Shown piece by piece: positions 4,851 through 55,139 of a stretch of 64,000 nucleotides of DNA. Position 1 is the stretch's first letter; every line of letters begins with the position of its first letter. The notes below the pieces were generated by a model, which saw only the letters and a program-made list of their open reading frames with translations, was not told the origin of the DNA and ran no database searches. Location of the stretch: NCBI GenBank assembly GCA_018304145.1, contig JAGVWU010000001.1, forward strand, positions 144 to 64,143. Direction: 5' to 3'. Origin of the DNA: Candidatus Pacearchaeota archaeon (GTDB lineage Archaea; Nanobdellota; Nanobdellia; Pacearchaeales; GW2011-AR1). The translations under genes and the position numbers were made by a program.

Positions 4851-5285
4851 TTAAGTAGATGTTAAAACTGCTTGTTCAAGGGGCAAATGTAATCTTTTTG
4901 CAAGATCTAAAAGGTTATCCTGTCCTTCAGATAATAAAGTTACAATAATTTCTGGCATTTCAGTTGCTACTTTAATTTCAGGTCGTTTTGATTTTATTCT
5001 GCCAAAAAATTCTCTTCGTTTAGAATAGGTTATGATAATACCCCTAAATAAAAAAGATTTTTCATCGTAAAATTTATTTTGACAATTTATACCATAGAAA
5101 CCAGTATTTCCAAGAGGCAAACCCCGAGCTTCTCCAACAAGTCTTGGATATTCTAATTTATCTTTATCTTCCACCCTTATTCCTTCCCACTCCCTTCCTC
5201 CAAAATACCATTGTTCAACAAACCCTCTTATTGGATGAGCAGGTGCGACATCAGAGCTTATTTCTCTCATTAATATACCTAACAA
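4851..5285 (-). CDS. hypothetical protein
   Basis: 144-aa ORF with non-low-complexity composition (GFYGINCQN, C-terminal helix-rich segment). No family recognised. Confidence 0.35.
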   Translation of the reverse strand: MLGILMREISSDVAPAHPIRGFVEQWYFGGREWEGIRVEDKDKLEYPRLVGEARGLPLGNTGFYGINCQNKFYDEKSFLFRGIIITYSKRREFFGRIKSKRPEIKVATEMPEIIVTLLSEGQDNLLDLAKRLHLPLEQAVLTST

Positions 5286-5361
5286 ATATTATTTTTAAAC
5301 ATTATTGTGGTGTATTATTTTTAAAAATCAAATTTATATACTCTTCATTACATTATCTATT

Positions 5362-6267
5362 ATGGAAAAATATGATTTAATTATAATAGGGGCGGGCCCT
5401 GCAGGGCTTAGTGCTGCTGTTTATGCAGCAAGATACAAGCTTAAGACCCTCATTCTTTCAAAAAGCATGGGTGGGATGGCTGCTGTTGCTCACAAGGTCT
5501 GCAATTTTCCATCTTACACAGAAATAAAGGGCTTTGATTTAATGCAGAAATTCTTAAAACAAGTTGAAGAATTGAAGGTTCCAATAATCTATGATGAAAC
5601 TGTAAAAATTGAAAGAACAAAAAATGAGTTTTTAGTTATAACTAAAAATAAAAAATATAATTGCAAAAAAATTATTTTTGCAGGAGGTTGCGAGAGAATA
5701 AGGCTTAAAGTTAATGGAGAAGGAAAGTTTTTAGGAAAAGGAGTGAGTTATTGTGCAACTTGTGATGCTGCTTTTTTTAGAAATAAAATAGTATGTGTTG
5801 TTGGTGGAAGCGATGCTGCACTTACTGCTGCATTATTGTTGTCTGAATATGCCTCAAAAGTTTATATTATCTATAGAAAAGAAAATTTTTTCAGGTCAGA
5901 GCCTGCCTGGATTGAATTAGTTGAAAAAGAAAAGAAAATAGAGACAATATTCAATGAAGAAGTTGCTGAAATAATCGGTAAAAACAGTGTTGAGGAAATC
6001 AGGTTAAAATCAGGAAAATTATTAAAAACTAACGGAGTTTTTATTGAAATTGGCTCTGTTCCAGAAACAAAATCATTAGATTCCTTAAAGGTTAAAAAAA
6101 CAGATGCAGGATATATTATAACAGACAAGAATCAAAAGACAAATATAGCAGGATTATATGCTGCTGGAGATGTTATTGACAGCCAATTAAAACAGATTGT
6201 TACTGCGGCTTCACAGGGTGCTGTTGCAGCTTATTCTGTTTATCAGGAATTAAAGAGAGAGGAATGA
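5362..6267 (+). CDS. trxB: thioredoxin-disulfide reductase
   Basis: FAD-binding GAGPAG near the N-terminus, redox-active CATCD motif and a second GGSDAA dinucleotide motif. Start placed at MEKYDLIIIG rather than the upstream ORF start at 5305. Confidence 0.85.
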   Translation: MEKYDLIIIGAGPAGLSAAVYAARYKLKTLILSKSMGGMAAVAHKVCNFPSYTEIKGFDLMQKFLKQVEELKVPIIYDETVKIERTKNEFLVITKNKKYNCKKIIFAGGCERIRLKVNGEGKFLGKGVSYCATCDAAFFRNKIVCVVGGSDAALTAALLLSEYASKVYIIYRKENFFRSEPAWIELVEKEKKIETIFNEEVAEIIGKNSVEEIRLKSGKLLKTNGVFIEIGSVPETKSLDSLKVKKTDAGYIITDKNQKTNIAGLYAAGDVIDSQLKQIVTAASQGAVAAYSVYQELKREE

Positions 6268-6550
6268 TAATTAGAAATTAATTAGCTTTCTGAAAATATT
6301 TATTAAAAATAACCAAACTTTGTTAAGGTTATTTTTCCTACAAATTTTATTAATTTTACAATCCAGAATTTATAAAATCTGCAATCAAAGCAAAACTTCT
6401 CTTACAAAACTTATTGAACTTAGAATATTAACTATAGCTCTTAGAAATTTAGACTTGCTGAAAGCTGGTTAAATTTTAATTATTTTGCTTCAAAAACTTA
6501 AATTATATATCCTTAGTATAATTTAAATAATCCTCTTATTTATTTTTCAT

Positions 6551-7843
6551 ATGAAAAAAGAGATTAATTCTATTCTGAAAAAAGAGATTGAAAATATAAA
6601 ATTAGATAAAAAGACTTTTGATGAGATAAACAGAGTGTGCAGGGAATTTATTTATGTTCTAAAGAATCAATTAAAAAAGAAGAAAATAAAAGCAGAGGTT
6701 TTTCTCGGAGGAAGTTTGGCTAAAAACACTATAATTAAAAAAACTGAAAAAGACAAATATGATATAGATATATTTGTCAGATTTGATAAAAAGAGCTCTT
6801 TAAAAAAGACCTTGGAGAAAGATAATTTATCTGAAATCCTTGAAAAACTCCTTGATAAAAATGCTGTAAAAGTTCATGGTTCAAGAGATTATTATCAATT
6901 TCTTAAAAAAAATATAAGAATAGAAGTAATCCCTGTAAAGAAGATTAAAAATCCTGCGGCTGCTGAAAATGTTACTGATTTAAGCTATTTTCATGTTAAT
7001 TATGTTGTAAATAAGACAAAAAAAAATAGAAAATTAAGCAATGAAATAATGCTAGCAAAGGCATTTACATATGCGCAAAATTCTTATGGAGCAGAGAGTT
7101 ATATTCATGGATTTTCTGGCTATGCTCTTGAACTTTTGATATGCCATTACAAGAGTTTTTTAAAATTTATAGAAGCGGTTGCAAAATCTCAGGAAAGAAT
7201 TATTATAGATGATTCTAAATTTTATAAGAAAAAAGAAGAATTATTGATGGAAATGAATGAATCTAAGATTATTTCTCCTATAATTTTGATTGACCCTACA
7301 TTCAAAGAAAGAAATGCCCTTGCCGGGCTTTCAAAAGAAACTTTTGAAAAATTTAAAAAATCCTGCAAGGATTTTTTAGCAAATCCTTCTTCGTATTTTT
7401 TTACTAAAAAGAATATTTATGATGAATTAAAAAACAATAAAAATCTTAAAATAATTTCAGTAAAAACAAGCAAGCAAAAAGGCGATATTGCTGGAACAAA
7501 ATCAAAAAAATTCTTTGATTTTTTTGTTTATAATATTAAAAAGGAATTTGTTGTTAAAAATGGAGAGTTTGAATATGATGATGAAAAAAATATTGCTTAT
7601 TTTTATTTGATAGTTGATAAGAAAAATGAAGAGGTAATCAAAGGACCTCCGATTAATATTGTTGAACACCTCACAGGATTTAAAAAAGCACATCCTAATG
7701 TTTTTATTAAAGATGGAATTAGCTATGCAAAAATTGCCCATAATCTTTCATTCGAAGAGTTTTTAAAGAGGTTTTTAGAAAAAGACAAAAAGATTATAAA
7801 GGAGATGGGTGTTAGGGAAGTGAAGATTATTGATAAGAAATAA
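6551..7843 (+). CDS. cca: class I (archaeal) CCA-adding tRNA nucleotidyltransferase
   Basis: GGSLAKNT...DIDIFV (GS...DxD) nucleotidyltransferase motif near residue 55. Length about 430 aa, typical of archaeal CCA enzymes. Confidence 0.6.
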   Translation: MKKEINSILKKEIENIKLDKKTFDEINRVCREFIYVLKNQLKKKKIKAEVFLGGSLAKNTIIKKTEKDKYDIDIFVRFDKKSSLKKTLEKDNLSEILEKLLDKNAVKVHGSRDYYQFLKKNIRIEVIPVKKIKNPAAAENVTDLSYFHVNYVVNKTKKNRKLSNEIMLAKAFTYAQNSYGAESYIHGFSGYALELLICHYKSFLKFIEAVAKSQERIIIDDSKFYKKKEELLMEMNESKIISPIILIDPTFKERNALAGLSKETFEKFKKSCKDFLANPSSYFFTKKNIYDELKNNKNLKIISVKTSKQKGDIAGTKSKKFFDFFVYNIKKEFVVKNGEFEYDDEKNIAYFYLIVDKKNEEVIKGPPINIVEHLTGFKKAHPNVFIKDGISYAKIAHNLSFEEFLKRFLEKDKKIIKEMGVREVKIIDKK

Positions 7844-21976: not shown

Positions 21977-22627
21977 TTAAGAGAAAAAAGCAAGTATCTT
22001 ATTCCTTAAAAGGATAGTGGATATTAAAACTCCTATAAGAAATAATAAGATTATTAATAAAATAATTTCTTTTTTATAATTTGATTTTTCAGGAGCTTCT
22101 TGAGCAATCTGAGGTTGAGATTGAGTTTGCAAGAGTGGTTGATGGGTTGGCTGAGGATATCTTGGAATTTGCATAGGTGTTTGTTTAGGTTGTTGAGAAA
22201 TTAAAGGAGGCTTCATTTGAATTTTAGGTGCAGAATTTGAAGAAATTTCTGACTTTATTTCACTATTAGTCGGAGTTCTTTGGGGCAATTGCTGAACAGA
22301 AGGATATCTAGGATTTAAATAAGAAAATTGCTGAATCTGCTGCAATTGACTTTGAGCAGGCAATTTTGGAGGGATGGGCATTCCTGAAATCATTGGTTGT
22401 GCAACTGGTGGACCAGGATTATTTTTTATTAATATATTTTTTTCTTCAGGCATAATTAGAAGATTTTTGTTGTTTGGAGACATTGGAACAAAACCAACAA
22501 ATTTTGAAGCATCTTGAACTTCATTTACAGGATATCCTGAATTAATCAGCACTCTCATTGCAGTTTCTAAACTCTCCCCCCTGTCAACAGCATTTCTTAA
22601 AGAAGTAACAATGTCTTCGTTTACCAT
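21977..22627 (-). CDS. Pro/Gln-rich protein with C-terminal TM anchor
   Basis: Folded N-terminal ~45 aa, then a long P/Q-rich low-complexity region, then a C-terminal hydrophobic helix (IILLIILLFLIGVLISTILL). Confidence 0.35.
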   Translation of the reverse strand: MVNEDIVTSLRNAVDRGESLETAMRVLINSGYPVNEVQDASKFVGFVPMSPNNKNLLIMPEEKNILIKNNPGPPVAQPMISGMPIPPKLPAQSQLQQIQQFSYLNPRYPSVQQLPQRTPTNSEIKSEISSNSAPKIQMKPPLISQQPKQTPMQIPRYPQPTHQPLLQTQSQPQIAQEAPEKSNYKKEIILLIILLFLIGVLISTILLRNKILAFFS

Positions 22628-24306: not shown

Positions 24307-25221
24307 TTAAATAGGTTTTGGATTGAAATCTTTTTTAAATTGTATTTTCCAAAATTTGTTTTTTGTGTCTATAATACAAGTTTCTCCAAGTGGAATTGTC
24401 AGATTAGGTTCTGAATGGCCAATTGGTTGATTCATAATAACCGGGCATTTAAAGTCTTGAAAAAAGTCTTTTAGGTAATTATTTATATTCTTGCCACAAT
24501 CTACAAAATTACCAAGAATAATCCCCTTAACATTATTAAACTTTCCTGCTAATTTAAGATGCCATAAAATATCCAATACCCAACCTTCTTTCATTTTTAC
24601 ATCTTCTATAAATAATATTTTATTATTTGTGTTAATTTCGTAATTTGTTCCTAATGACCTTTCGAGCAAGGTTAAATTTCCTCCAGCAATGTCTGCTCTT
24701 GCAAAGCCTTGTTTTAAAATATCTTGATTGTTTATAGCTATTTGATAATTCTTTTTATTAATAGCATCAAATAAACAAAGAATGGTTTTTTCATGATATT
24801 TTTTTATAGGTTTCCATAGATTTGGCCCATGCAAACATCTTTTTCCGGTTTTTTGATAGATAGTATTTAATAGAATAGTAATGTCACTATAACCTATTAA
24901 GGTTTTATTTGATTTTTTTATTAAATCATAATCTAAAAAAAGAAGTGTATGAACTGCACCCATTCCACCGATTATACTAAAAATAAACTTAGAATTTTTA
25001 TCATTGTATGCTAAATTAATTTCTTTAGCTCTTCGTTTATAATCTCCGGCATAATAATGATATTTATCAATAATGTCGGGAAGATAATTGACTTCAAAAT
25101 TCCAGTTTTTTAATATTTTTATTGCATTATTTAAAAGTTTTTTTCCACTATAACCTGAAGGAGAAATTAGAAAAGCATATCTTTTTTGATTAGAGATTTT
25201 ATTTTTATTTGAAACTGCCAT
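24307..25221 (-). CDS. LD-carboxypeptidase (peptidase S66, MccF/LdcA-like)
   Basis: GYSDITILLN matches the S66 catalytic Ser motif GYSDxTAL. Start placed at internal MAVSNKN so that it abuts the upstream ATP-grasp gene. Confidence 0.55.
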   Translation of the reverse strand: MAVSNKNKISNQKRYAFLISPSGYSGKKLLNNAIKILKNWNFEVNYLPDIIDKYHYYAGDYKRRAKEINLAYNDKNSKFIFSIIGGMGAVHTLLFLDYDLIKKSNKTLIGYSDITILLNTIYQKTGKRCLHGPNLWKPIKKYHEKTILCLFDAINKKNYQIAINNQDILKQGFARADIAGGNLTLLERSLGTNYEINTNNKILFIEDVKMKEGWVLDILWHLKLAGKFNNVKGIILGNFVDCGKNINNYLKDFFQDFKCPVIMNQPIGHSEPNLTIPLGETCIIDTKNKFWKIQFKKDFNPKPI

Positions 25222-25222
25222 T

Positions 25223-26140
25223 TTATGAACTGAATTTTCTTTCAACAGCTTGAACAATTGGGTCTGATAGATTATATGAATCAGTTTCATTTGCAGTTGT
25301 TGGCGGAGCAACACCTGTTCCAGAGCCATTTATTTCCAAAACATATTGTCCTCTGAAATCAACAGCCCCATAAAACATTCCTGTTTTTTCAATTACTTTT
25401 CTAGCAATTTCAATTTCTCTTGGTATGCCTTCCATTAAGTCAACGTTAGTGCATCTTTCTCTTCCAGGTTCCCCTTGTTTGAACATCCTTCTCCTTATTA
25501 TGCATTGACCATCTAAAAAAATATATCTTCTTTCTTCATTTGCTGGAATGTATTGTTCAAAAAGATATTCATCGATATCTTCAATTTTTTGCAAATCCTC
25601 AATTCTCTCTAAAAATTCAACACCCATGCTACATGCACCTATTCTTGGTTTTGCAATTATTCTTTCACCAGAAGCAACTAAATCTGAGAGTTCCTTTGGA
25701 GTTTTAATATCAAATCCATGTATCCATGGAAGTTCCAAAGTTTTTTGTTTTGGTTTATATTCATATGAAGTGCTTTCTGCTCTATTAAGAACAAGAGAAA
25801 ATTGTTTTTCCATTTGAAAAAGAAGGTCTATGAATCTTTTTGAAGCACTTGCTCCTTGTTCTTCATCTAAGCTGTACACAAAAAAAACATCACCTGATAA
25901 AGTTGCATCAGTTCTTTTTTTATAAAAACTACCATTACTAAATCCATAAGCACTTCTTGCATATAATCTGCCTAATTTATCATAGCAAATGTTTCTTGGA
26001 TGAACCACCTCTAAATCATGACCTCTTTTAACAAAAGCGTCAGCTAAAAATCTAGAACCCATATAACCCATTCCCTGCCCTTTTGCATTTGGGTCAAATT
26101 GGGTTTTAGCTTCTTCACTTAAACTGAGAGTAATCTTCAT
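25223..26140 (-). CDS. ATP-grasp ligase (GshB-like)
   Basis: IIAKPRIGACSMG, EQYIP...RYIFLDGQ and AVDFRGQYVLEINGSGTG follow the order of the ATP-grasp ATP-binding, central and C-terminal motifs, as in prokaryotic glutathione-synthetase-like enzymes. Confidence 0.6.
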   Translation of the reverse strand: MKITLSLSEEAKTQFDPNAKGQGMGYMGSRFLADAFVKRGHDLEVVHPRNICYDKLGRLYARSAYGFSNGSFYKKRTDATLSGDVFFVYSLDEEQGASASKRFIDLLFQMEKQFSLVLNRAESTSYEYKPKQKTLELPWIHGFDIKTPKELSDLVASGERIIAKPRIGACSMGVEFLERIEDLQKIEDIDEYLFEQYIPANEERRYIFLDGQCIIRRRMFKQGEPGRERCTNVDLMEGIPREIEIARKVIEKTGMFYGAVDFRGQYVLEINGSGTGVAPPTTANETDSYNLSDPIVQAVERKFSS

Positions 26141-26160
26141 TTTGTTAAATTTTAATTAAT

Positions 26161-27120
26161 TTAATACCAGAATATATTTTTTATAACCTTGTTAAATAAA
26201 ACCATGCCAGATTCTGCAAAATTCACCTCAGATTTAGATTTATTTAATATAGCAGAAATTATCATTTGCATCCTTTCAATATCATCTAAGCTGTCTACGA
26301 AATAACCTGCAGTAGGATTAACCTCTATAACATAAGGTCCTTTTTTAGTCATTATCACATCTGACTCGCTAAAAGACGCTCCAATAGCCTTGTTTGCTTG
26401 AATAGCAATTTCTCTTTCTGACTTATTTGCAGTATAATTCATTTCAATAGAACCGCCAGATGTTGATGCCATCCATTTATCCTTGGAATTTCTTGAAATA
26501 AAACTTCTTGCGTAAGAATATAGAAAATTACCCTCTACAACAGCCACCCTGCAATCATGTTCTCTGTTGGATTGAATAAATTTTTGTATTATAAAACCAG
26601 ATTTATAGCTTTGTTTTTTTGCTAAATCAAACATCTTATCCAAAGTATCTATTAATTCTTTTAATGAATAAACTTTGGTTACTTCATAACTTTTTCCACC
26701 GCAATTCCTCTTAACTACCAATGGAAATCCAAATTCTTTTATTGCTTTTTCTGAATTCTTTTTAATATCTCTTCTTGAACAAACAAAAATAGTTGGAGGG
26801 GTATTTATCCCATTTAATTTTAATTTCTTATATAATTTATATTTATTATAGTCTGCTAAAGATGCAGTGTAAGAATTAACACATCTTATCCCTTTTTTTT
26901 CAAGACTTTTTATTAATTTTAAAGTTTTGGATAGGGATTTAAAATCTCTTGAAGCAACACTGCTGTAAACCCTATTAAAAACTAAGTCAAAAGACAACAA
27001 GTCTTTTTCTGAAACATCTCTTATGTCAAAAAAACTGACAAAAGCTCCTTGTTCTTCAAATAATTCCTTGAATTTTGGTTCAGGAGCTTCTAGATCGTGA
27101 TGCAGTATTGCTATTTTCAT
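26161..27120 (-). CDS. ATP-grasp ligase (RimK-like)
   Basis: GFPLVVKRNCGGKSYEV, IIQKFIQ...DCRVAVVEG and VIEVNPTAGY are typical of RimK-type ATP-grasp ligases. Separated by only 20 bp from the preceding ATP-grasp gene. Confidence 0.65.
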   Translation of the reverse strand: MKIAILHHDLEAPEPKFKELFEEQGAFVSFFDIRDVSEKDLLSFDLVFNRVYSSVASRDFKSLSKTLKLIKSLEKKGIRCVNSYTASLADYNKYKLYKKLKLNGINTPPTIFVCSRRDIKKNSEKAIKEFGFPLVVKRNCGGKSYEVTKVYSLKELIDTLDKMFDLAKKQSYKSGFIIQKFIQSNREHDCRVAVVEGNFLYSYARSFISRNSKDKWMASTSGGSIEMNYTANKSEREIAIQANKAIGASFSESDVIMTKKGPYVIEVNPTAGYFVDSLDDIERMQMIISAILNKSKSEVNFAESGMVLFNKVIKNIFWY

Positions 27121-27395
27121 TTATTCATAAATACATTCCCCTCCTTTATCTGAAAATCATAAGGATTTTCAGTCTCTTTTAAAGGTTTAATTTTGGAAAA
27201 AACAAGTATCTATATTTAAATCTTTCGCAACTATTTTATAGTTATGATAACTTATATTTTAATCAGATTTTATTTTTAGATAATTCTTGATTTTATTTTT
27301 ATAGAACATTAACCCTTTAAAAATGTTTTTATAGCGGATTTTCGTAATTAAGCTATGAAAAAAGCTCTCTGTCAAAAAGAGACTTTGGAGAGAAA

Positions 27396-27719
27396 ATGAA
27401 AAAAAGAGATGATAAAATTAGAATAAGCCATAACAAAAAATTATTGGTGGTTATAATAATACTTATTTTTTTACTTGCTTTATTAATTTATTTTATTTTG
27501 AAAAACAGTAATCAAAATAATATTCCTGTTGAAAAAGAATGTGTTAATGATGAAGATTGTTTTGCTTCAGCATGCTGTCATGCTGAATTCTGTGTTGCAA
27601 AAGATAAAGCACCGATATGCGATAAAATATTCTGTTCGCAGGTTTGTTCAGGGCCTTTAGATTGTAATAAAGGACATTGCGGATGTGTTAATGGCAGATG
27701 TTCAGTGATTAAAAATTAA
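27396..27719 (+). CDS. Cys-rich small membrane-anchored protein
   Basis: N-terminal TM anchor followed by a ~60-aa domain with 14 Cys (CVNDEDCFASACCHAEFC...CGCVNGRC). Transcribed divergently from the ATP-grasp operon. Confidence 0.45.
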   Translation: MKKRDDKIRISHNKKLLVVIIILIFLLALLIYFILKNSNQNNIPVEKECVNDEDCFASACCHAEFCVAKDKAPICDKIFCSQVCSGPLDCNKGHCGCVNGRCSVIKN

Positions 27720-27861: not shown

Positions 27862-30621
27862 ATGATAAATAAAAAAATATTAATTTTATTTGTATTTTTA
27901 TTAATCATATTTGAAATATTCCTAATAAGCTCTTCTGAAAATGAGGATAAAATAGACTCTCATGTGTATGAGAGTTTAAAAGAAGATTATGAAGCGAAAG
28001 TAATTATTGAAATAAAGAATATTTCTTCTGAAATAGAAAAAAGAGATATTAAAAAAGATATTGAAGAAAAAATTGATGATAAAATAAAACATGATTTTGG
28101 AGACGAGATTGCTGTAGAAGTTTCAAAAGAAGAATTAATTGAATTAAAAAACAATCCTAATGTTGAGTCCATAAAATTGGACAAGCCCATAAGGGCTTTT
28201 TTAACAGATTCTGTTCCTTTGATAAATGCAAGCGCTGTCTGGCCGATAAAAATCAATAATTTTAATATAACTGGAATTGATGAAACTATCTGTATAATAG
28301 ACACTGGAATTAATTTTGCTCATTCTGATTTAATTGGGAAAAACAAGACCTGCATAATTGATTGTGTTGGAAAAGCATGTGTTGAAAACTGTTTAATTGC
28401 AGATGATAATGGACATGGAACTCATGTAGCAGGCATTGTTGCTGCAAATGGTGTTGCAAAAGGTGTTGCTGTTGGAGCTAATTTAATAGGGGTAAAGGCC
28501 TTGAATTCAGCTGGAGAAGGAAGCTCCAGTGATATTGATGCTGGAATTGATTGGTGCATTGCAAACGCAAATGCTTATAATATTTCTGTTATAAGCATGA
28601 GTTTAGGAACTGATTGTGATTTAACCCCCCAATATTGCTATAATGTTTATTGTGATTATGACTGGACAAGCACTGGAATAAAAATAGATAATGCAACTTC
28701 AAAAAATATTTCAGTTATAATAGCAACTGGGAATGATGGAAAAACAATAAATATTTCTGCCCCGGCCTGTATTAAAAACGCGACTGCTGTTGCTGCTACA
28801 AATAAAGATGATACAATTGCAAGTTATTCCAATAGAAACAGTCTTGTTGATTTTATTGCTCCTGGAACAAGCATAAGTTCAACAAGCAGTTCAGAAGGAT
28901 ATATCACTTATAGCGGAACATCCATGGCAGTCCCTCATGTTGCAGGAGCTTTTGCATTAATAAGAGAATTTTTCAGATTGCAGTATAACAGAAAACCAAC
29001 TTCTTTTGAAATATTAAAATTATTAAATTCAACTGGAAAATGGATAAATGATACTAGTGGAAACGGATTGAATTATTCAAGAGTTAATGTTTATTCTGCT
29101 TTAATTTCCAATGACAGCTCTGCTCCTTCTGTTAACTTAATTACTCCAACGAATGGAACCACCCAATTCAATACAAGTGTAAATTTAAGATGCAATGCTA
29201 ATGATGTCCTTTTATCAAATCTAAGTTTGTATGTATGGAATTCAACTAATAATGTTGTGAATATAACGAATCATACAACTATTGGCATAAACGCAGACGA
29301 GCAATTTATTTTGAATCTAAGTTATGGAGATTATAAATGGAATTGTCTTGCTTATGACAGCAAATCAAAATCAAGTTTTGCTGTATCAAATTTAAGCTTA
29401 ACAATTAGTGGATTAAGAGTTAATTTGATTTTTCCTTCAAATAATATTTATACAAATCAGAACAGAACCTTTAATTGCTCTGCAGAAACAGAATCTTCAA
29501 AAGCATTATCAAATATCACTTTTAATGTTTGGAATTCTTCTATGAATTTGATTTTTAATTCCACCAAGAATATTTCAGGAATTTCTAACTCTACTCTTTT
29601 TTATTATAATTTTACAAATGAAACAAGTTATTACTGGAACTGCAGGATATCTGATAATAATTCTGATTCGGTTTTTGGTGAATCCAATTTTACAATAGTT
29701 TATGACATAACAAAGCCGGATATTGGCATAATCAGCCCTGCTGACTCTTCATCATATAGTTCAAACTCCCAGTCAATAGATTTTAATTATAATGTTTCTG
29801 ATAATTACAATATTGCAAACTGCAGCTTGATTGTTAATAATGTTGCTAGTCTGACAAATTCATCTATAAACAATTTATCTTTAACACAAATTTTTACTCA
29901 GAGTTTTTCTCCTGGAAATTATAATTGGTCAATAAATTGCACTGATTTCTCTGGAAATTCAGAGAATTCCACTAATAGAAGTTTTTCAATCATCACTCCT
30001 CCAGCTCAGGTTGTTACAGCTTCTGGCGGTGGAGGCGGAGGAGGAAGCCCCTCAACCTTATATAAAACATACAATCCAAATATATCAGAAACTTCGGTTG
30101 GCTATACAAAAGAATTAAGCAAAAATGATAAAATACAATTTTCGTTCTTTGATTCAAACTCTATAAAACACACTTTGACTATAAATGAAATCAAGGCAGA
30201 TTCTGTGAATATAACAATTAAAAGCAATCCTCTTAATTTTTTGCTTGGAATAGGGCAGAGTATTAAATTGAATTTAAGTTCTGCTGATTATTATGATTTG
30301 TATATCAAATTAGACCTTATTGAAAATAATAAAGCCAAAATTACAATACAGACAATTCAGGAACAGATTCCTAAAATAAAGCAGCAGCCTGAAATCAGCG
30401 GAAATAATATAAAAGAAACTGAGAAACAATCTGAAGAGAATATAGATTATTTGAATAAGCAGATAAAAATTATCAAAATTTTCTTTTTTTCTGTTGTGAT
30501 AATATTTATAATAGTTATTGCATTGATATTATTGATTAAAAGAAAGCAAAATAAAAATAAAAAGAGCAAGATTAAAGAATATAAGGATGTATTTAATAAT
30601 CATCTTAAACCTAGAAAATGA
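27862..30621 (+). CDS. subtilisin-like serine protease (S8), cell-anchored
   Basis: Signal peptide. Catalytic triad boxes ICIIDTGINFAHSDL (Asp), HGTHVAGIVAA (His) and GTSMAVPHVAG (Ser). Repeated ~90-aa Ig/PKD-like modules, a GGGGGGGS linker and a C-terminal TM anchor with a basic tail. Confidence 0.85.
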   Translation: MINKKILILFVFLLIIFEIFLISSSENEDKIDSHVYESLKEDYEAKVIIEIKNISSEIEKRDIKKDIEEKIDDKIKHDFGDEIAVEVSKEELIELKNNPNVESIKLDKPIRAFLTDSVPLINASAVWPIKINNFNITGIDETICIIDTGINFAHSDLIGKNKTCIIDCVGKACVENCLIADDNGHGTHVAGIVAANGVAKGVAVGANLIGVKALNSAGEGSSSDIDAGIDWCIANANAYNISVISMSLGTDCDLTPQYCYNVYCDYDWTSTGIKIDNATSKNISVIIATGNDGKTINISAPACIKNATAVAATNKDDTIASYSNRNSLVDFIAPGTSISSTSSSEGYITYSGTSMAVPHVAGAFALIREFFRLQYNRKPTSFEILKLLNSTGKWINDTSGNGLNYSRVNVYSALISNDSSAPSVNLITPTNGTTQFNTSVNLRCNANDVLLSNLSLYVWNSTNNVVNITNHTTIGINADEQFILNLSYGDYKWNCLAYDSKSKSSFAVSNLSLTISGLRVNLIFPSNNIYTNQNRTFNCSAETESSKALSNITFNVWNSSMNLIFNSTKNISGISNSTLFYYNFTNETSYYWNCRISDNNSDSVFGESNFTIVYDITKPDIGIISPADSSSYSSNSQSIDFNYNVSDNYNIANCSLIVNNVASLTNSSINNLSLTQIFTQSFSPGNYNWSINCTDFSGNSENSTNRSFSIITPPAQVVTASGGGGGGGSPSTLYKTYNPNISETSVGYTKELSKNDKIQFSFFDSNSIKHTLTINEIKADSVNITIKSNPLNFLLGIGQSIKLNLSSADYYDLYIKLDLIENNKAKITIQTIQEQIPKIKQQPEISGNNIKETEKQSEENIDYLNKQIKIIKIFFFSVVIIFIIVIALILLIKRKQNKNKKSKIKEYKDVFNNHLKPRK

Positions 30622-37990: not shown

Positions 37991-39175
37991 ATGGAAGACA
38001 TACATAATTATAAACGAAGACTTGAAAGAACTCTCGAAAGGGTAAATAAACTTGATCTCTATCCAGAAGATAAGGAATTAATTTATAGATTCAAAGATCT
38101 TTGTATCTGTCAAAATATAAGTTATGGAAAATTAGATGCTTATCTATTCTATACAATAAAACTTACAAATTTCCTTCAAAAACCAATAAAGGAAGCCAAT
38201 AAAGAGGACATAATGAATGTTATAGCAAAACTTAATGAAACAAATTATAGTGAGCAAACCAAAAAATGTTTTAAAGTTTTACTTAAAAAATTATACAAAT
38301 ATATTAGAGGTATAGAAGGTAAAGGAGAATATCCTGAAGAGGTAAAATGGATGTCAACTACAATTTCTAGAAATCATCAAAAACTGCCTGATGAACTTAT
38401 TAATGAAAACGAAATAGAAAGTATTATTAGGGCTGCTCAAAATACGAGAGATAAAGCTTTAATTTCTATTCTTGCAGAATCAGGTTGCAGAGTTTCTGAA
38501 ATAGGTCTCATGAAAATAAAAAATGTTTCATTTGAAGAATATGGGACAAGAATAGCAGTTTCAGGAAAAACGGGATCAAGAAAAATATTAGTGATAAATA
38601 GTACACCTTATTTACAAGAGTGGATTAATCAACATCCATTAAATAACAATTCTGATTCTTTTCTATGGTACAATCCATTAAATAGCAAATATCTAAGTTA
38701 TACCCGAATTACCAGTATTCTAAAAACCGCAGCAAAAAGAGCAGGAATAAAGAAGAGAATTCATCCTCATTTGTTAAGGCATAGCAGAGCAACGAAAATG
38801 GCTACGGTAATGAGTGAAGCTTCCATGAAGCAATATTTTGGATGGACTCAGGGATCTTCAATGGCAGGAGTTTATGTTCATTTATCTGGAAAAGATACTG
38901 ATGATGCCATACTCAAAGCAAATGGAATTGAAATAACAAAAAAAGAAATGATTATAACAAAAATGAAACCTATTATTTGCAATAGATGTAAAACATCAAA
39001 CGAAGCAACAAATAGATTCTGTAAAATATGCGGTCTTCCTTTAACAAAGGAGATTGCAGAAGAAACAATAAAAGAAGATTCTGAAAAGAAAAAGTTTGAG
39101 GATATATTAGAAATTGCTTTATCGGATAAAAAAGTATTAGAAATGATTAAAGAGAAGATGAAAGTAATTTTATAG
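37991..39175 (+). CDS. tyrosine recombinase / integrase (XerC/D-phage integrase family) with C-terminal Zn ribbon
   Basis: Box I ESGCRVSEI (catalytic Arg), box II HPHLLRHSRATKMA (H-x-x-R-H) and catalytic Tyr in GVYVHL. C-terminal CNRCK...CKICG ribbon. Confidence 0.8.
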   Translation: MEDIHNYKRRLERTLERVNKLDLYPEDKELIYRFKDLCICQNISYGKLDAYLFYTIKLTNFLQKPIKEANKEDIMNVIAKLNETNYSEQTKKCFKVLLKKLYKYIRGIEGKGEYPEEVKWMSTTISRNHQKLPDELINENEIESIIRAAQNTRDKALISILAESGCRVSEIGLMKIKNVSFEEYGTRIAVSGKTGSRKILVINSTPYLQEWINQHPLNNNSDSFLWYNPLNSKYLSYTRITSILKTAAKRAGIKKRIHPHLLRHSRATKMATVMSEASMKQYFGWTQGSSMAGVYVHLSGKDTDDAILKANGIEITKKEMIITKMKPIICNRCKTSNEATNRFCKICGLPLTKEIAEETIKEDSEKKKFEDILEIALSDKKVLEMIKEKMKVIL

Positions 39176-46662: not shown

Positions 46663-47772
46663 TTATTTATTATCTGTTGCTGTAAGAAATTTTTTTAATG
46701 TTTCTCCTCTTTCTTCGGCTTTTTTAGAAAGAACTTCGGATAAAGCATTATTTTTCAATTGAGGTATTGCGATTTTTATTTTTTCTCCCATTTCAACTCT
46801 AATCATTTTATTTATAATGTCTTTTTCTATCATTGGTGCTTTACTATACATCGATATAATAGAATATTTGTTTTGTAATATATTGCCTCTATCTTCGTTG
46901 CATTTGATAAATTTACAGTTTAATCCATAATTTATATAATTTTTATAAACTGTTTCTTTTTCAACTAAATGCCAATTCATTAAATCTATGTTAAATAAAT
47001 CATTCCACTCTTCATAATTAAAATCTTTTTTCATTGAAAGTGGTATACTCATCTCTATAGATTTCAGATATTTACTCGAAGAAATTAAGAAATTAAGTGG
47101 GTTGTTATAACTTCTACCCCTTTCTTTTAATTCTTTAAGATATGCTCTTAAATCTTTGTCTTTATGACCAAAAAATGTATCATCATCTCCTTTTATTATT
47201 TCAGGTGTTATGAATATTTTATCATCCTTCTCTTTTAATGCCCAAAGAAATAAATTATATTTTATCTCTTTTGCCTTTGAAGTTATTTCAGTTACACAAG
47301 GTTTTTGAGTTGCTAAAACAAATTCTTTATCTATAATATCTCCAACTAAACTTTTATAAAAATCTAATATTCTCATTCTTCTACCCTCGATAGTATTAGT
47401 AATTTCTATATTCTCAACAACTTCTTTTGAATATTCTTTTAAACCATTCATAATAGAAATTGCATTATGTGCTGATACACCTTCTTTTACACTTATAAGA
47501 ATTATATTTTTATTTCCATATAATAAAATATCAAAATTCTTTTCTTTGAAAAAAAATAAGGGTTCTGTCCTAACAAATTTAATAGGAGAATCATTTGAAT
47601 TAAAAGCAAAAATAATTATACCAATATCATTTATTTCACTACGATTAACTGCTATCTGACTATGAATGCTTCCCTCATATTCTTTTGATAATTTAGCTCT
47701 CATATCATCAACTTTCTTTTTAAGAATAATCTTCATTTTCTTACTGTTCTCGGAATTTATTTTGGAACTCAT
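46663..47772 (-). CDS. hypothetical protein
   Basis: 369-aa ORF tightly coupled to its neighbours (2-nt spacing on both sides). No motif recognised. Confidence 0.45.
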   Translation of the reverse strand: MSSKINSENSKKMKIILKKKVDDMRAKLSKEYEGSIHSQIAVNRSEINDIGIIIFAFNSNDSPIKFVRTEPLFFFKEKNFDILLYGNKNIILISVKEGVSAHNAISIMNGLKEYSKEVVENIEITNTIEGRRMRILDFYKSLVGDIIDKEFVLATQKPCVTEITSKAKEIKYNLFLWALKEKDDKIFITPEIIKGDDDTFFGHKDKDLRAYLKELKERGRSYNNPLNFLISSSKYLKSIEMSIPLSMKKDFNYEEWNDLFNIDLMNWHLVEKETVYKNYINYGLNCKFIKCNEDRGNILQNKYSIISMYSKAPMIEKDIINKMIRVEMGEKIKIAIPQLKNNALSEVLSKKAEERGETLKKFLTATDNK

Positions 47773-47773
47773 T

Positions 47774-48829
47774 TTAGTATATTATCTTTGTCAATTGGTC
47801 TATTTTTTCAGTAAGAAATCTGTGAAATCTTACTATAGAAACAAAACTTGATTTATATTTTGGGATAATTGTAAATCTCTTTCCGTCTGAAGTCATTGAA
47901 AATATATTTCCTTTCTGTTCATCAACAACATTTGAACTAAAAATAACCGAACCCTCTTCTAATTTAGTATTGTAAACACTAAAATTATTTTTTTCCATCA
48001 CTGTTAAAAACTCACGAAATTCTTCAAATGAAATGTCTTTTTCTATTTCAAAAATCACCTGTTTAGTTTCAAGAATTTCTCTACCATTTTCTTTTTTAAT
48101 ATCCATTTTTGCACTTTCCATCTCTTGATTATCTTTTATGACCATTTCTATAAATCTTTCAATAATATTATTCAAAAAATCCTCTACTTTTCCATAATAT
48201 AATGTATAATACCCTCTCTTGTTTATTTTGAATTTAAATGAATTTGGAATAACAAACTCGATAGCTTGTGGGAGAACACCATATACAAATCTCATTTCTT
48301 CAAAAGCTGTTTTGGCATCATCTCCTGTATATTCTATATCTCTATAGAACATAGGTCTCTTACATTCCTGTTTACCCATGTCCACTTTTTTACCGTGGAA
48401 GTAAGTCATATAACTTCCTTCAATCTTTAATATAATATCCTTCAAGTTATCAAAATAAGAGGGAGGTAGCCATAAATAGTATACATTTGGAATATTGTCT
48501 ATAATTCCAAATAGAGTTCTATACAAATCACTAATTCCATTAAAAGTGAAGATAAAATAAATTTCTTTATATTTTGAATGCCTTAATAAGTAATAATCTA
48601 CTTCACGGTTCTCTTTATGTAACTGATATATTTTTGAAAAATGAATTATTTCTCCAAAGGAGGAATTATCTATTATAAATTCATTTTCTTCTAATTTCTC
48701 ATAAATTGAATCTAATTCATCATTTAAAAAAATAGTAATTATTTGTAAATTTTTATTATTATCCTTTAAAGTATCATTACAAAGACCACAGAATGAACTT
48801 GCAGAATATTTTTGAATTGGTAATTTCAT
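47774..48829 (-). CDS. hypothetical protein
   Basis: 351-aa ORF, first gene after hsdR (100-bp gap). No motif recognised. Confidence 0.45.
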   Translation of the reverse strand: MKLPIQKYSASSFCGLCNDTLKDNNKNLQIITIFLNDELDSIYEKLEENEFIIDNSSFGEIIHFSKIYQLHKENREVDYYLLRHSKYKEIYFIFTFNGISDLYRTLFGIIDNIPNVYYLWLPPSYFDNLKDIILKIEGSYMTYFHGKKVDMGKQECKRPMFYRDIEYTGDDAKTAFEEMRFVYGVLPQAIEFVIPNSFKFKINKRGYYTLYYGKVEDFLNNIIERFIEMVIKDNQEMESAKMDIKKENGREILETKQVIFEIEKDISFEEFREFLTVMEKNNFSVYNTKLEEGSVIFSSNVVDEQKGNIFSMTSDGKRFTIIPKYKSSFVSIVRFHRFLTEKIDQLTKIIY

Positions 48830-48929
48830 TTTATTTTGACCTCTCTCAAACTGAATGTAATACTTTTTTATACTTTTTTGCTATTTATTCACTCACATAT
48901 AATAGTAAAATTATGCTCTTTCACACGTT

Positions 48930-51923
48930 TTACTTTTTATTCAGCCTCTTGTACACTTTATCTAGCATCCAGTCTTTGACAGTTTCTGCAAAATCTTTGT
49001 CATCCATTATTTTCTTAAATATGTCTTGATTTTGCTCCATACGGTCTATAACCTTATTGATAAATACATCTTGAAAACCATATTTAAAGTTCTCAACAGA
49101 ATTTGTTTTTGCTTGTTTTGAAAGTTTTTCGTCAGCAACAAGTTCTTCTTCAATTTGGTCAAAAAATAGTTTATCTGCTTCTGTAAAATCTGTTCCAAAC
49201 CTTTCATTTAAAATCTTAATTATTTCTGAAAGTTTTGCATATTCTTCTTTTTCTTCTCTTACCCCTGCAGTATTAAGTGGTTTTAACCATCCTTCTTTTC
49301 CTTTTTCTAGTGATATACTTCCCTCATTTATTTTTTGAAGTCTGTAATATTCTAATGCAACTTCATCACCAAGTTTAAATCTTTCAGATAAATCTTTTCT
49401 AGGCAGTTTATTTACTAATAATCTTCCATAAGCATAAAACTTTTCTAAATCACTGTCTTGAAAAGGCATAATTTGGGATAAAAAAGAATATACTCTTAAG
49501 AAAACAGTCAACATATGTTTAAATTCCTCTTGTTTTTCTGTTTTATCTATTGCTCTAAATCTTGAAACTGCTGGGTCTATATACGAGTTTAATAATGAAT
49601 GGTCTTTAATTGATTGATATTTTGCTGATTTAAAAAACACTTTACAGAAGTTTTCGACATCTAACTTATCAATAACCCCTCTTTCTTCTATCTTATATTT
49701 TAAGTCATAGAGTTTATTTGGGTCTGTTGTTTCTTCAAGGAGTGTAATCTCATAATAGGGTTGGAAAGCATTAATTATATCTGAATCATCATTTACAAAA
49801 TCTAAAATAAAGGTATCTTCTTTTCCCGGACAAGTCCTATTTAATCTTGATAGAGTTTGAACTGCTTTTATTCCTGATAACTTTTTATCCACATACATAG
49901 TATGCAGAAGTGGTTGGTCATAACCTGTTTGATATTTATCAGCAACTAACAATAATTGGTATTCATTAGTATTAAATTTATCAGGAAGTTCTTTTTCACC
50001 AAACTGATTCATTTTTGGTTCTGTATATTCTTTTCCATCTTTTACTATTCCTGAAAATGCAACAATAGCCTTGATGTCGTTATATTTATTCTTTTTAAGA
50101 TAATCATCAAATTCTCTCTTGTACCTAACTACGTGAAGCCTTGAAGGAGTAATAACCATTGCTTTTGCCTTACCTCCAATTTTTTTCATTGTAACTTGTC
50201 TAAAATGCTCTATCATAACTTCTGTTTTTTGTGCGAGATTATGAGGATGTAAAGCAACAAATCTTGCTATCGCTCTTTTTGCCTTTTTCTTGTTTATTTT
50301 TGGGTCATCTTCGATTTGTTTGGATAATCTAAAGAAAGTTTGGTAGGTTGTATAATTTTTAAGAACATCTATAATGAAACCCTCTTCTATTGCCTGCCTC
50401 ATAGAATATAAATGAAATGGTTCTGGCTTTCCAGTTATTTTGTTTTTAACACCAAAAATTTCAAGGGTTTTTGCTTTTGGTGTTGCAGTAAATCCAAAAA
50501 AACTTAAATTTTTATGCATCCCTCTTGCTTCCATAGATTTTCTTATTTCATCTTCTGTATCTACTTGTTTTTCTAGTTCTGTTGAATCTTTTTTTATTGC
50601 TTCATCAAAATCTTTATAACTCAAGACTTCTTTCATTTTTTTAGATGCCTCTCCACCTTGTGAAGAGTGTACTTCATCTATAATCAGAGCATAATTTCTT
50701 TTTGGAAGTTCACCTATTGTTTCAATAATATAGGGGAATTTCTGTAAGGTTGTTATAATAATTTTTGTTCCAGACTTTAATGCTTCAGATAGTTGTTTGG
50801 AATTTTTATCTATTTTTTCAACTACTCCTTTTTTATGCTCAAACTGATAAATAGTATTTTGAAGTTGTTGGTCTAAAACTAATCTATCAGTAACTACAAT
50901 AATTGAATCAAATACAGGTTTGTCTTTTTTATTGTGCAAACTTGATAATCTATAAGCAAGCCACGCAATAGAATTACTCTTGCCACTTCCTGCTGAATGT
51001 TGAATCAAATAGTTTTTTCCAGTTCCATTTTCTTTTGTATCTGCCTCTAATTTTAGAACACAATCTAATTGATGGTAACGAGGAAAAAGCATTGATTCTT
51101 TTTTTATTGTTTTTCCTTCAATCTTAAATTCTTCAATTTGGATGTGCATAAACCTTCCAACAATATCCATAAAACTATCTCTCTCTAAAATTTCTTCCCA
51201 TAGATAAGAAGTTTTGTAACCTTTGGGATTTGAGGGATTTCCAGCACCATTTTCAAAGCCCTTATTAAATGGCAAGAACTTAACATCTCCTTCAAGTTTT
51301 GTTGTTAAAAAAATATTATCTGTATCAACAGCAAAATGAACTAATGCTCTTTTCTTAAACTGGAATATTAATTCATTGGGGTCGCGATCTTCTTTGAATT
51401 GTCTTTTTGCATTTTCAACATCTTGTCCTGTAAATTGATTTTTTAATTCAATTGTAGCGATAGGCAGTCCATTAATTGAAATCAACATATCAAGAGAATT
51501 TTCATTCTTCAAGCTGTATTTTACCTGTCGTGTCAAGGTCAACTTATTCATCTGATATAATTTTTCTGTCTGGGGATTTAACCCACTCGCAGGTCTAAAA
51601 AAAGCAATCTTAAATCTTACCCCATAATCAATAATTCCATTTCTTAAAACATCAAGTGTACCTCTGCTATCAAGTTCCTTAACTAATCTTTGTAAGAATT
51701 TTGTTTCAACATCTACTCTATGAATACCAGATAGTTTTTTCCATTCATTTGGTTGACTTTCTTTAATAAAAGAAAAAAGAACATTTGTATCCAATGCAAT
51801 TTCTTTATTGAAATCTTTTGCATTTCCTTTAAGAAAACCACCTTTATCTTTACCTGTTAAAAAATCCTCTATAGCTGTTTCAAAAGCTTTTTCATTTGTT
51901 ATTGACACCATCTTTTTATTCAC
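48930..51923 (-). CDS. hsdR: Type I restriction enzyme R subunit
   Basis: SF2 helicase motif I QHSAGSGKSNS and motif II IIDEVH. 997 aa. N-terminal nuclease region. Overlaps the hsdS 3' end. Confidence 0.85.
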   Translation of the reverse strand: MNKKMVSITNEKAFETAIEDFLTGKDKGGFLKGNAKDFNKEIALDTNVLFSFIKESQPNEWKKLSGIHRVDVETKFLQRLVKELDSRGTLDVLRNGIIDYGVRFKIAFFRPASGLNPQTEKLYQMNKLTLTRQVKYSLKNENSLDMLISINGLPIATIELKNQFTGQDVENAKRQFKEDRDPNELIFQFKKRALVHFAVDTDNIFLTTKLEGDVKFLPFNKGFENGAGNPSNPKGYKTSYLWEEILERDSFMDIVGRFMHIQIEEFKIEGKTIKKESMLFPRYHQLDCVLKLEADTKENGTGKNYLIQHSAGSGKSNSIAWLAYRLSSLHNKKDKPVFDSIIVVTDRLVLDQQLQNTIYQFEHKKGVVEKIDKNSKQLSEALKSGTKIIITTLQKFPYIIETIGELPKRNYALIIDEVHSSQGGEASKKMKEVLSYKDFDEAIKKDSTELEKQVDTEDEIRKSMEARGMHKNLSFFGFTATPKAKTLEIFGVKNKITGKPEPFHLYSMRQAIEEGFIIDVLKNYTTYQTFFRLSKQIEDDPKINKKKAKRAIARFVALHPHNLAQKTEVMIEHFRQVTMKKIGGKAKAMVITPSRLHVVRYKREFDDYLKKNKYNDIKAIVAFSGIVKDGKEYTEPKMNQFGEKELPDKFNTNEYQLLLVADKYQTGYDQPLLHTMYVDKKLSGIKAVQTLSRLNRTCPGKEDTFILDFVNDDSDIINAFQPYYEITLLEETTDPNKLYDLKYKIEERGVIDKLDVENFCKVFFKSAKYQSIKDHSLLNSYIDPAVSRFRAIDKTEKQEEFKHMLTVFLRVYSFLSQIMPFQDSDLEKFYAYGRLLVNKLPRKDLSERFKLGDEVALEYYRLQKINEGSISLEKGKEGWLKPLNTAGVREEKEEYAKLSEIIKILNERFGTDFTEADKLFFDQIEEELVADEKLSKQAKTNSVENFKYGFQDVFINKVIDRMEQNQDIFKKIMDDKDFAETVKDWMLDKVYKRLNKK

Positions 51924-53250: not shown

Positions 53251-53251
53251 T

Positions 53252-54973: not shown

Positions 54974-55110
54974 ACCCAAACACCTATTATTATTACTATA
55001 ATAGGTTCTATTTAAAGTTATTTTAGACCATTTAGCCACCTAGTGCAAAGCTTTGCTTCTTATGGCGGCTTTTTTATATTTTTTGTTAATTTTATATTAT
55101 ATAAAATGGA

Positions 55111-55139
55111 AAAGCCACCTAAAAAGCTTGGTGGCTTTT
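55111..55139 (-). terminator. intrinsic-terminator-like hairpin (GCCACC-N-GGTGGC followed by T-run) directly after the VirB4-like gene stop
   Basis: AAAAGCCACCTAAAAAGCTTGGTGGCTTTT. On the minus-strand RNA the stem is followed by a U-run. A second related hairpin (AGCCACC...GCAAAGCTTTGC...GGCGGCT + T6) lies at 55042-55086. Confidence 0.5.

Follow-up and report, generated by a model that had tools for sequence, protein, structure and literature searches.

The 64,000-nucleotide stretch of contig JAGVWU010000001.1 analysed here (the window), from a Candidatus Pacearchaeota archaeon, contains three consecutive minus-strand genes for two ATP-grasp ligases and a serine hydrolase of peptidase family S66, together called the cassette below. 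Gene 1 (positions 26161..27120) encodes a RimK-type ATP-grasp amide ligase of 319 amino acids, recognised by Pfam profiles. Gene 2 (25223..26140, 305 amino acids) encodes the core ATP-grasp ligase, assigned by homologue alignment and by AlphaFold and Foldseek. Gene 3 (24307..25221, 304 amino acids) encodes a serine carboxypeptidase-type hydrolase, identified by its Pfam S66 domains. Genes 1 and 2 are separated by exactly 20 bp (26141-26160). The longest mechanical open reading frame (ORF) of gene 3, 24307-25329, overlaps gene 2 by 107 bp. However, the start is better placed at the ATG at 25221, as by one gene caller and by the homologue alignment; this codon begins one nucleotide past the stop codon of gene 2 (25225-25223). 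Together the three make up one operon with translational coupling. The next gene beyond it, 143 bp away, encodes RNase J.

On the other side, an AT-rich intergenic spacer of 275 bp (27121..27395), delimited by sequence inspection, separates gene 1 from a divergent plus-strand gene (27396..27719) for a membrane-anchored protein of 107 amino acids with 12 cysteines, which we do not count in the cassette. The spacer has GGAGG approximately 20 nt upstream of the ATG at 27120 and TATA-like runs further upstream, and presumably holds the operon promoter. The four ORFs, the 20-bp and 275-bp distances and the same-strand peptidase with its GYSDIT motif agree with an earlier sequence-only reading of this DNA. 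Its count of 14 cysteines in the small protein has to be lowered to 12.

The product of gene 1 matches Pfam RimK (PF08443; 7e-17, 62 bits against a cut-off of 21), ATP-grasp_3 and Dala_Dala_lig_C. Its score with the NCBIfam family rimK_fam (TIGR00768) is 109.5 bits, under the cut-off of 143.4. Because it passes the former cut-off and fails the latter, we classify it as a divergent member of the RimK superfamily and not as a RimK orthologue. None of the equivalog cut-offs is reached: the scores are 80 bits against 276 for LysX, 80 against 350 for MptN and 54 against 300 for CofF. The best sequence matches in PDB are Ddl (3r23, 3e-10), ArgX (3vpb, 1e-7) and RimK (3e-5). The ATP-binding K137, two arginines, R191 and R205, and the Mg2+ ligands D254, E266 and N268 are invariant in 31 homologues. 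The family consists of only 39 clusters at 90% identity, found on the same contigs as the gene 2 family, and would be a small subfamily restricted to DPANN archaea. The two ligases are distant paralogues (hhalign 96%, 18% identity).

Gene 2 is the core ligase, the invariant partner of the S66 enzyme, and it comes from a previously unmodelled family. No Pfam or NCBIfam match was observed at E<=0.01, and comparison with PDB sequences, using either the single sequence or a profile of 43 sequences, returned no meaningful match, a ferritin hit at E 0.07 being noise. The protein fails the curated sequence cut-off for GshB (TIGR01380 / PF02955), and it matches neither CofF nor MptN. Among 45 homologues, only five have a precomputed match to PF02955. 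The AlphaFold2 model has a predicted local distance difference test (pLDDT) score of 89.1 and a predicted template modelling (pTM) score of 0.87. Its top Foldseek match is E. coli glutathione synthetase (1gsa; E 8e-14, template modelling (TM) score 0.71/0.69, root-mean-square deviation (rmsd) 4.6 Å), followed by the graspetide ligase PsnB and then by RimK and ArgX; MdnC, AMdnB and PruB are also among the matches listed. The graspetide ligases PsnB and MdnC fit less well than GshB, with TM scores of 0.56-0.62 and an rmsd of about 8 Å. The model thus predicts a three-domain ATP-grasp fold of the GshB type. The name 'GshB-like', given to this protein in the sequence-only reading, holds at the level of structure, whereas at the level of sequence the resemblance is invisible to Pfam, NCBIfam and PDB sequence models. 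The ATP-grasp signature K164, E203, R205, R217, D261, E269, N271 is invariant in the alignment of homologues. The family has 45 clusters in 5.8 billion proteins, and a HMMER search of 1.84 billion representative proteins retrieved 38 representatives at E<=1e-30.

Gene 3 contains both S66 domains (PF02016 and PF17676; 3.5e-29 and 6e-29), with a catalytic triad Ser112 (GYSD), Glu206 (FIED) and His269 (GHSEP) that is invariant in 40 homologues; no signal peptide is visible in the sequence, and the protein is predicted to be cytoplasmic. By sequence, the closest solved structures are MccF-like proteins of Bacillus (B. anthracis) and Listeria (3e-28), ahead of LdcA (2e-15 and 1.5e-11). By structure the order is reversed. 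The AlphaFold2 model (pLDDT 94.5) best fits LdcA (1zrs, 6uuk) in size and rmsd, with a target-normalised TM score of 0.85-0.87 and an rmsd of 2.1-2.6 Å, whereas with MccF structures the target-normalised score drops to 0.74-0.79. The inter-domain loop of MccF is absent: residues 137-156 (20 amino acids) correspond to residues 140-187 (48 amino acids) of BaMccF. Against the LdcA equivalog (NF008424) the protein scores 105 bits, far under the cut-off of 378. Neither the window nor the surroundings of the cassettes yielded mccA- or mccB-like genes, and no murein genes were found near gene 3. The subfamily has about 52 clusters at at least 43% identity, many of them on contigs with the ligases. 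Beyond these, identity drops sharply to at most 38%, and the matches are bacterial (Omnitrophota, Firmicutes) LD-carboxypeptidases. Because the clade is about equal in size to the ligase families and is set off from bacterial S66 enzymes by this abrupt gap, we regard it as a subfamily dedicated to the cassette and not as a stray murein enzyme.

Conservation and accessory genes

Homologous loci were collected in three ways: 11 came from scanning a single genome of each GTDB species, 18 more from metagenomes, and the others from look-ups of exact proteins; some look-up homologues could be reached solely by the full HMMER search of the 1.84 billion representatives. Loci with at least 90% identity in gene 2 were merged, leaving 30 non-redundant lineages. 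These span Pacearchaeota, Woesearchaeota and Aenigmatarchaeota, with ligase identity to the window down to about 25%. As far as named sequences show, the cassette would be specific to DPANN archaea; named homologues of its proteins come from metagenome-assembled genomes of Pacearchaeota, Woesearchaeota and Nanoarchaeota.

Of the 27 loci long enough to show it, 23 have the S66 gene after the core ligase in the operon. One locus (L014) has it nearby but on the opposite strand, and in three (the L020 group, L025 and L037) it is absent from beside the ligases. The RimK-type ligase is directly upstream of the core ligase in 24/26 loci; it is absent in L027 and L029, so the minimal conserved pair is the GshB-fold ligase with the S66 enzyme. 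Genes flanking the cassettes are otherwise unrelated between lineages, and the three families are similarly small (45, 39 and about 52 clusters) and occur on common contigs. Because the arrangement recurs in 30 lineages with ligase identity down to about 25%, the gene order is conserved far beyond chance, and the trio is a real functional unit, as the sequence-only reading had supposed from a single locus; the three-gene synteny that it proposed to look for in other archaea does recur.

Several kinds of accessory genes were found in relatives. A pyridoxal phosphate-independent racemase of the Asp/Glu type (PF01177 / TIGR00035) heads the operon in seven lineages, including two Aenigmatarchaeota-type contigs, and its gene overlaps or abuts that of the first ligase. 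These racemases score 162-225 bits with TIGR00035 (cut-off 93), and the catalytic cysteine motifs CNT[AS]H and GCTE are kept in 7/7. Three of them (L011 6364-7092, L013 6289-7095, L015 6171-7040) also exceed the cut-off of the cysteate racemase CuyB (195-229 bits against 190), and therefore the D-residue could be D-cysteate instead of D-Asp or D-Glu.

Other additions are limited to one or two lineages each. L025, which has no S66 gene, contains a third ligase of the glutathionylspermidine synthetase type (GSP_synth) between the two ATP-grasp genes, and in L028 the core ligase is duplicated. An opine dehydrogenase is encoded between the ligase and the S66 gene in L027. The S66 gene is followed by a fused Asn-synthetase/Dph6-like amidotransferase in L011 and L043, and by a papain-like (C39-like) DUF3335 peptidase in L013 and L018. 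In one Pacearchaeota lineage (L015 8975-10828) the S66 enzyme is fused to a C-terminal DUF1861 domain (5.7e-37), which we take to be a glycosidase-like beta-propeller.

A regulator of the AsnC/Lrp type, unusually long at about 314-322 amino acids, is encoded beside the cassette in six lineages: L011 5330-6268(-), L027 3961-4917, L028 4884-5840(-), L029 6704-7672(-), L033 2959-3879(-) and L034 256-1200(-). The Pfam domains HTH_AsnC-type/HTH_24 and AsnC_trans_reg were observed in L027, L028 and L029; the other three were assigned by tblastn. The six proteins are 23-26% identical among themselves. Their position suggests amino-acid-responsive control of the cassette, and the kinds of accessory genes would fit, by analogy, the small-molecule metabolism of amino acids and peptides.

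The cell division gene ftsZ lies zero to four genes from the cassette in 5/30 lineages, in four arrangements: it may be upstream of the cassette, immediately downstream, beyond DUF3335 or on the opposite strand. Its positions are 5170-6249 in L010/L022, 10573-11646 in L013, 10628-11701 in L018, 14161-15240(-) in L015 and 1396-2463 in L045. Either a remnant of ancestral gene order or a functional link could account for this proximity. The C-termini of these FtsZ proteins are ordinary (...GLDDLS or ...GIDFL); acidic tails were looked for in them and none was found.

Three further observations concern individual loci. A small acidic ORF is situated between DUF3335 and ftsZ in L018 (10458-10556, 32 amino acids, MRKKLIKLLQN..EE..E..LLHVAM) and in L013 (10346-10507); the two are 72% identical and were not seen elsewhere. 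In L020/L021, a lineage that has no S66 gene, a gene for an 89-residue PP-binding carrier protein (6187-6456(-)) lies on the opposite strand about 0.7 kb upstream of the ligases. Directly upstream of the cassette of L027, whose contig may be archaeal or bacterial, there is a full-length gene for a (p)ppGpp synthetase/hydrolase of the RelA/SpoT type (4964-6952; HD, RelA_SpoT, TGS and ACT domains).

Candidate function and alternatives

We see about an even chance that the cassette assembles a short acidic peptide or amide, its putative product, without the ribosome and also turns it over. Each ligase would activate a carboxylate to an acyl-phosphate and add one amino acid. Acting in series, the two would build a short peptide or peptide-like amide in the manner of glutathione or of the D-Ala-D-Ala and D-Asp parts of murein, with a D-residue incorporated at least in the racemase-bearing lineages. 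The S66 enzyme would then hydrolyse one bond of the ligase product, for mobilisation, length control or recycling; its target at that time is probably different from the bond that the ligases form. The scissile bond may follow an L- or acidic residue, by analogy with LdcA, which cleaves the C-terminal bond between an L- and a D-residue, and with MccF, which cleaves Asp/Glu-X amides. Intact catalytic residues in all three proteins predict catalytic competence.

Asp and Glu are pointed to because gene 1 belongs to the RimK family, because the racemase of the relatives is of the Asp/Glu type and because the S66 enzyme is MccF-like. Racemases of this type act on free acidic amino acids, and enzymes of the MccF clade act on Asp/Glu-linked amides. 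We infer a small-molecule substrate instead of a protein tail, its acidic and D-residue content, and the bond cleaved by the S66 enzyme. The product may serve as a compatible solute or osmolyte, as a store of amino acids under feast/famine control, as a small protective peptide or, once exported, as a bioactive peptide. That an oligopeptide is synthesised without the ribosome and then trimmed had been among the possibilities raised in the sequence-only reading; this is now favoured by the racemase, the GSP-synthetase-type ligase, the opine dehydrogenase and the amidotransferase of the relatives.

Several points weigh against this. The whole scheme is built from sequence and genomic context. 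No racemase is adjacent to the cassette in the window or in its closest relatives (L005-L010), and none was found in the 64 kb, and therefore the claim of a D-residue is confined to other lineages. Making a ligase and a hydrolase for one product at the same time seems self-defeating, except where the two have different target bonds or are under post-translational control. Among characterised enzymes, the closest relatives of gene 1 are RimK, LysX and ArgX, whose substrates are proteins and not small molecules. The lineages that have no S66 gene (the L020 group, L025 and L037) mean that the hydrolase is not strictly required, and the presence of ftsZ within zero to four genes in five lineages is left unexplained by a small-molecule model.

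Another possibility is that the ligases act on proteins: RimK modifies bS6, LysX and ArgX modify LysW, and tubulin tyrosine ligase (TTL) and the TTL-like enzymes (TTLLs) modify tubulin. The cassette would then be a C-terminal tagging cycle, in which the ligases add acidic, possibly D-, residues and the S66 enzyme (or DUF3335) strips them. The RimK-family membership of gene 1, the presence of ArgX and RimK structures among the best fold matches of gene 2, the ligase and trimming peptidase pairing with its RimK/RimB logic, the papain-like peptidase that follows S66 in L013 and L018, and the four arrangements with ftsZ are all consistent with such a cycle. On the other hand, the surroundings of the cassette contain no conserved gene for a carrier or target such as LysW, the FtsZ tails have no acidic runs, and the window contains no ftsZ within its 64 kb. 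The racemase, the opine dehydrogenase, the GSP-synthetase-type ligase and the AsnC regulator are typical of small-molecule metabolism, and bS6 is a bacterial protein with, to our knowledge, no archaeal counterpart. We consider protein tagging unlikely. Its most specific form, reversible modification of the C-terminal tail of FtsZ or of another division protein in DPANN archaea, comes to mind because ftsZ is near the cassette in five of the 30 lineages; shared ancestral gene order could also explain this, and we regard the tail cycle as a long shot. If true, it would be a prokaryotic counterpart of the tubulin tyrosination/glutamylation cycle, since TTL and the TTLLs belong to the ATP-grasp superfamily. 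A ribosomal product is hardly credible either. Two adjoining ATP-grasp genes recall the graspetides (ribosomally synthesised and post-translationally modified peptides of the microviridin type), where the ligases would macrocyclise a ribosomal precursor that S66 would trim. The analogy, drawn in the sequence-only reading, could draw on the Foldseek matches of gene 2 to PsnB, MdnC, AMdnB and PruB and on the C39-like peptidase of L013 and L018. However, the fold is nearer to GshB, and a free-amino-acid racemase is unfit for such a pathway. The spacer 27121-27395 contains only low-complexity ORFs of 27-38 codons with TTG starts, none of them a credible precursor, and small ORFs within 0.9 kb of the cassettes match only between near-identical lineages, with no wider conservation.

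The S66 enzyme itself suggests two other schemes. In the available portion of PMC11537232, 'muramoyltetrapeptide carboxypeptidase' genes are reported as abundant in Pacearchaeota and are read as agents of murein scavenging; that portion does not mention a linkage to ligases. The surprise voiced in the sequence-only reading at finding an LD-carboxypeptidase here was thus overstated. Salvage of murein peptides would have the S66 enzyme trim D-Ala from imported bacterial muropeptide stems and the racemase and ligases re-use the pieces. The match to LdcA in fold and size, the lytic transglycosylases of Woesearchaeota (PMC9723730) and the S66-DUF1861 fusion of L015 agree with it, and the set of S66, papain-like peptidase and racemase/epimerase presumably resembles the murein-peptide operon ykfABC of B. 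subtilis. However, the S66 clade stands apart from bacterial LdcA, whose equivalog cut-off it misses by a wide margin, and is nearer to the MccF type in sequence; catabolism leaves ATP-consuming ligases without a function; genes for Mur ligases, transporters or glycosidases were neither found in the window nor conserved beside the cassette; and the cassette is rare, while one would expect scavenging to be widespread in such lineages. Salvage therefore seems quite unlikely to us. In sequence, gene 3 best matches microcin C immunity proteins and homologues of these, which raises the idea of a toxic Trojan-horse di- or tripeptide or aminoacyl conjugate directed against hosts or competitors, with an MccF-like S66 enzyme conferring self-immunity. 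Stand-alone ATP-grasp ligases do make dipeptide antibiotics (bacilysin, tabtoxin, rhizocticin), and the tailoring genes vary by lineage as in biosynthetic gene clusters. This is very unlikely: the nucleotide-binding loop of MccF is missing, no exporter is conserved beside the cassette, no adenylating or warhead-forming enzyme is present, and PADLOC defence models gave no match and no signal of a conflict system. Finally, the ligases could add glutamyl tails to F420 or methanopterin, like CofF and MptN, with the peptidase being an unrelated neighbour. The sub-threshold MptN and CofF matches of gene 1 are what speaks for it; this is next to negligible, as gene 1 comes close to neither cut-off, gene 2 has no match to either model, the peptidase keeps its synteny and is specific to the cassette, and no F420 or tetrahydromethanopterin (H4MPT) pathway genes were found in the window. 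Clustering with these cofactor ligases, together with a non-syntenic peptidase, had been named in the sequence-only reading as the outcome that would speak against its proposal; neither was observed. Overall, the evidence argues against cofactor tailing, murein recycling proper and a graspetide.

If non-ribosomal assembly of an acidic peptide is true, the cassette would provide a genetic handle on ribosome-independent synthesis of D-amino-acid-containing peptides in archaea, and its core ligase would represent a new ATP-grasp subfamily undetected by current Pfam and NCBIfam models. The annotation 'muramoyltetrapeptide carboxypeptidase' in Pacearchaeota would have to be re-read, at least for this clade, as the hydrolytic arm of an endogenous ligase pathway. 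The enzyme set is compact (two ligases, a racemase and a hydrolase) and could be directly expressed and assayed. In DPANN archaea, whose genomes are tiny and from which most biosynthesis has been lost, a conserved, ATP-costly peptide module of three to five genes is likely to matter.

Other genes in the window

The G+C content of the window is about 29%, and the gene content is typical of a DPANN archaeon (exosome, proteasome, Rad50/Mre11, RNase J, aCPSF). The same sequence recurs on a JGI contig (71 kb) and in many other assemblies. Annotated for murein, cofactor and transporter context, the rest of the window comprises housekeeping genes and a mobile region only; no homologues of ftsZ or DUF3335, and none of the racemase, were found elsewhere in the 64 kb.

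The divergent 107-residue protein, with its 12 cysteines, has one predicted transmembrane helix and no Pfam match. With NCBIfam it gave a weak match to the model heavy_Cys_CGP (E 0.005, 16 bits against a cut-off of 200). In tblastn (E<=1e-5) no match was found in the 11 genome loci L005-L015. Among the loci collected, the sole homologue near a cassette is in L034 (51% identity), where it is situated about 0.9 kb downstream and is not divergent. We judge that this protein lies outside the cassette, and its suggested role as a partner of the ligases is not borne out. It is followed on the plus strand by a gene (27862-30621) for a subtilase of family S8 with 919 amino acids, an N-terminal signal or anchor, Asn/Ser-rich repeats and a C-terminal transmembrane helix. 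The two are probably a pair of surface proteins unrelated to the cassette.

On the minus strand, positions 21977-22627 encode a protein of 216 amino acids with a long low-complexity middle part rich in Pro and Gln, a C-terminal transmembrane helix and no Pfam match. The mobile and defence region (37991-39175 and 46663-58932, minus strand) contains genes for a phage-type integrase, a PD-(D/E)XK/Cas4-like nuclease, a complete type I restriction-modification system (HsdR, HsdS, HsdM) and a TraC/VirB4-like ATPase of about 990 amino acids. Such a set points to a conjugative-type element that has integrated into a DPANN genome.

Comparison with known systems

The cassette shares the ATP-grasp fold and the proposed stepwise addition of single amino acids outside the ribosome with GshB, Ddl and the D-Asp ligase Aslfm of Enterococcus and Lactococcus, the best match of gene 2 being glutathione synthetase itself. 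The resemblance to Aslfm extends to gene order: in enterococci a racemase is paired with the D-Asp ligase, and relatives of the cassette encode an Asp-type racemase directly upstream of the ligase. However, the cassette ligases belong by sequence neither to GshB or Ddl nor to any other NCBIfam equivalog and have no murein context, and in the cassette two different ligases (three in some relatives) would act in series together with an S66 hydrolase.

In the RimABK system, and putatively in the cassette, a RimK-family ligase acting with acidic amino acids is co-transcribed with a peptidase that undoes its addition; the pairing of RimK with RimB is known from Pseudomonas (PMC7343187, PMC11957791). 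The two systems differ, however. RimB is a retropepsin-like aspartic protease, whereas the cassette peptidase belongs to S66; archaea lack bS6, the RimK target; gene 1 is under the rimK_fam cut-off; and RimABK offers no equivalent of the second ligase or of the racemase. An equivalence of RimB with DUF3335 was considered and rejected, as RimB is retropepsin-like, and thus only the logic of a writer and an eraser carries over to the cassette.

With LdcA and MccF the cassette S66 enzyme shares the two-domain fold, the Ser-Glu-His triad and, by analogy, the hydrolysis of C-terminal or aminoacyl amides. It differs from both in forming a separate clade, at most 38% identical to bacterial S66 enzymes and tied to ATP-grasp ligases; in addition, it fails the LdcA equivalog cut-off and, unlike MccF, has no inter-domain loop.

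Cyanophycin synthetase is similar in the ATP-grasp-dependent, non-ribosomal formation of amides from acidic amino acids and in its link to a serine hydrolase, cyanophycinase. However, the cassette has no Mur-ligase-type domain and no S51 peptidase, and a polymer is not implied. A further link, through CphZ as an S66 enzyme, was rejected, as CphZ is an M14 zinc peptidase. The Asn-synthetase-like amidotransferase that follows S66 in L011 and L043 recalls the synthesis of N-acetylglutaminylglutamine amide (NAGGN) by Ngg and AsnO, from which the cassette differs by having no GNAT domain.

A literature search gave no paper linking RimK or ATP-grasp enzymes with LD-carboxypeptidase, MccF or S66, the ATP-grasp survey of Iyer et al. 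2009 being outside its coverage. Every part of the cassette belongs to a known superfamily, and the combination of a ligase with a peptidase has precedents in RimK/RimB and in cyanophycin synthetase/cyanophycinase. What appears to be undescribed is the core ligase family, the dedicated S66 clade and their fixed combination, often with an Asp-type racemase.

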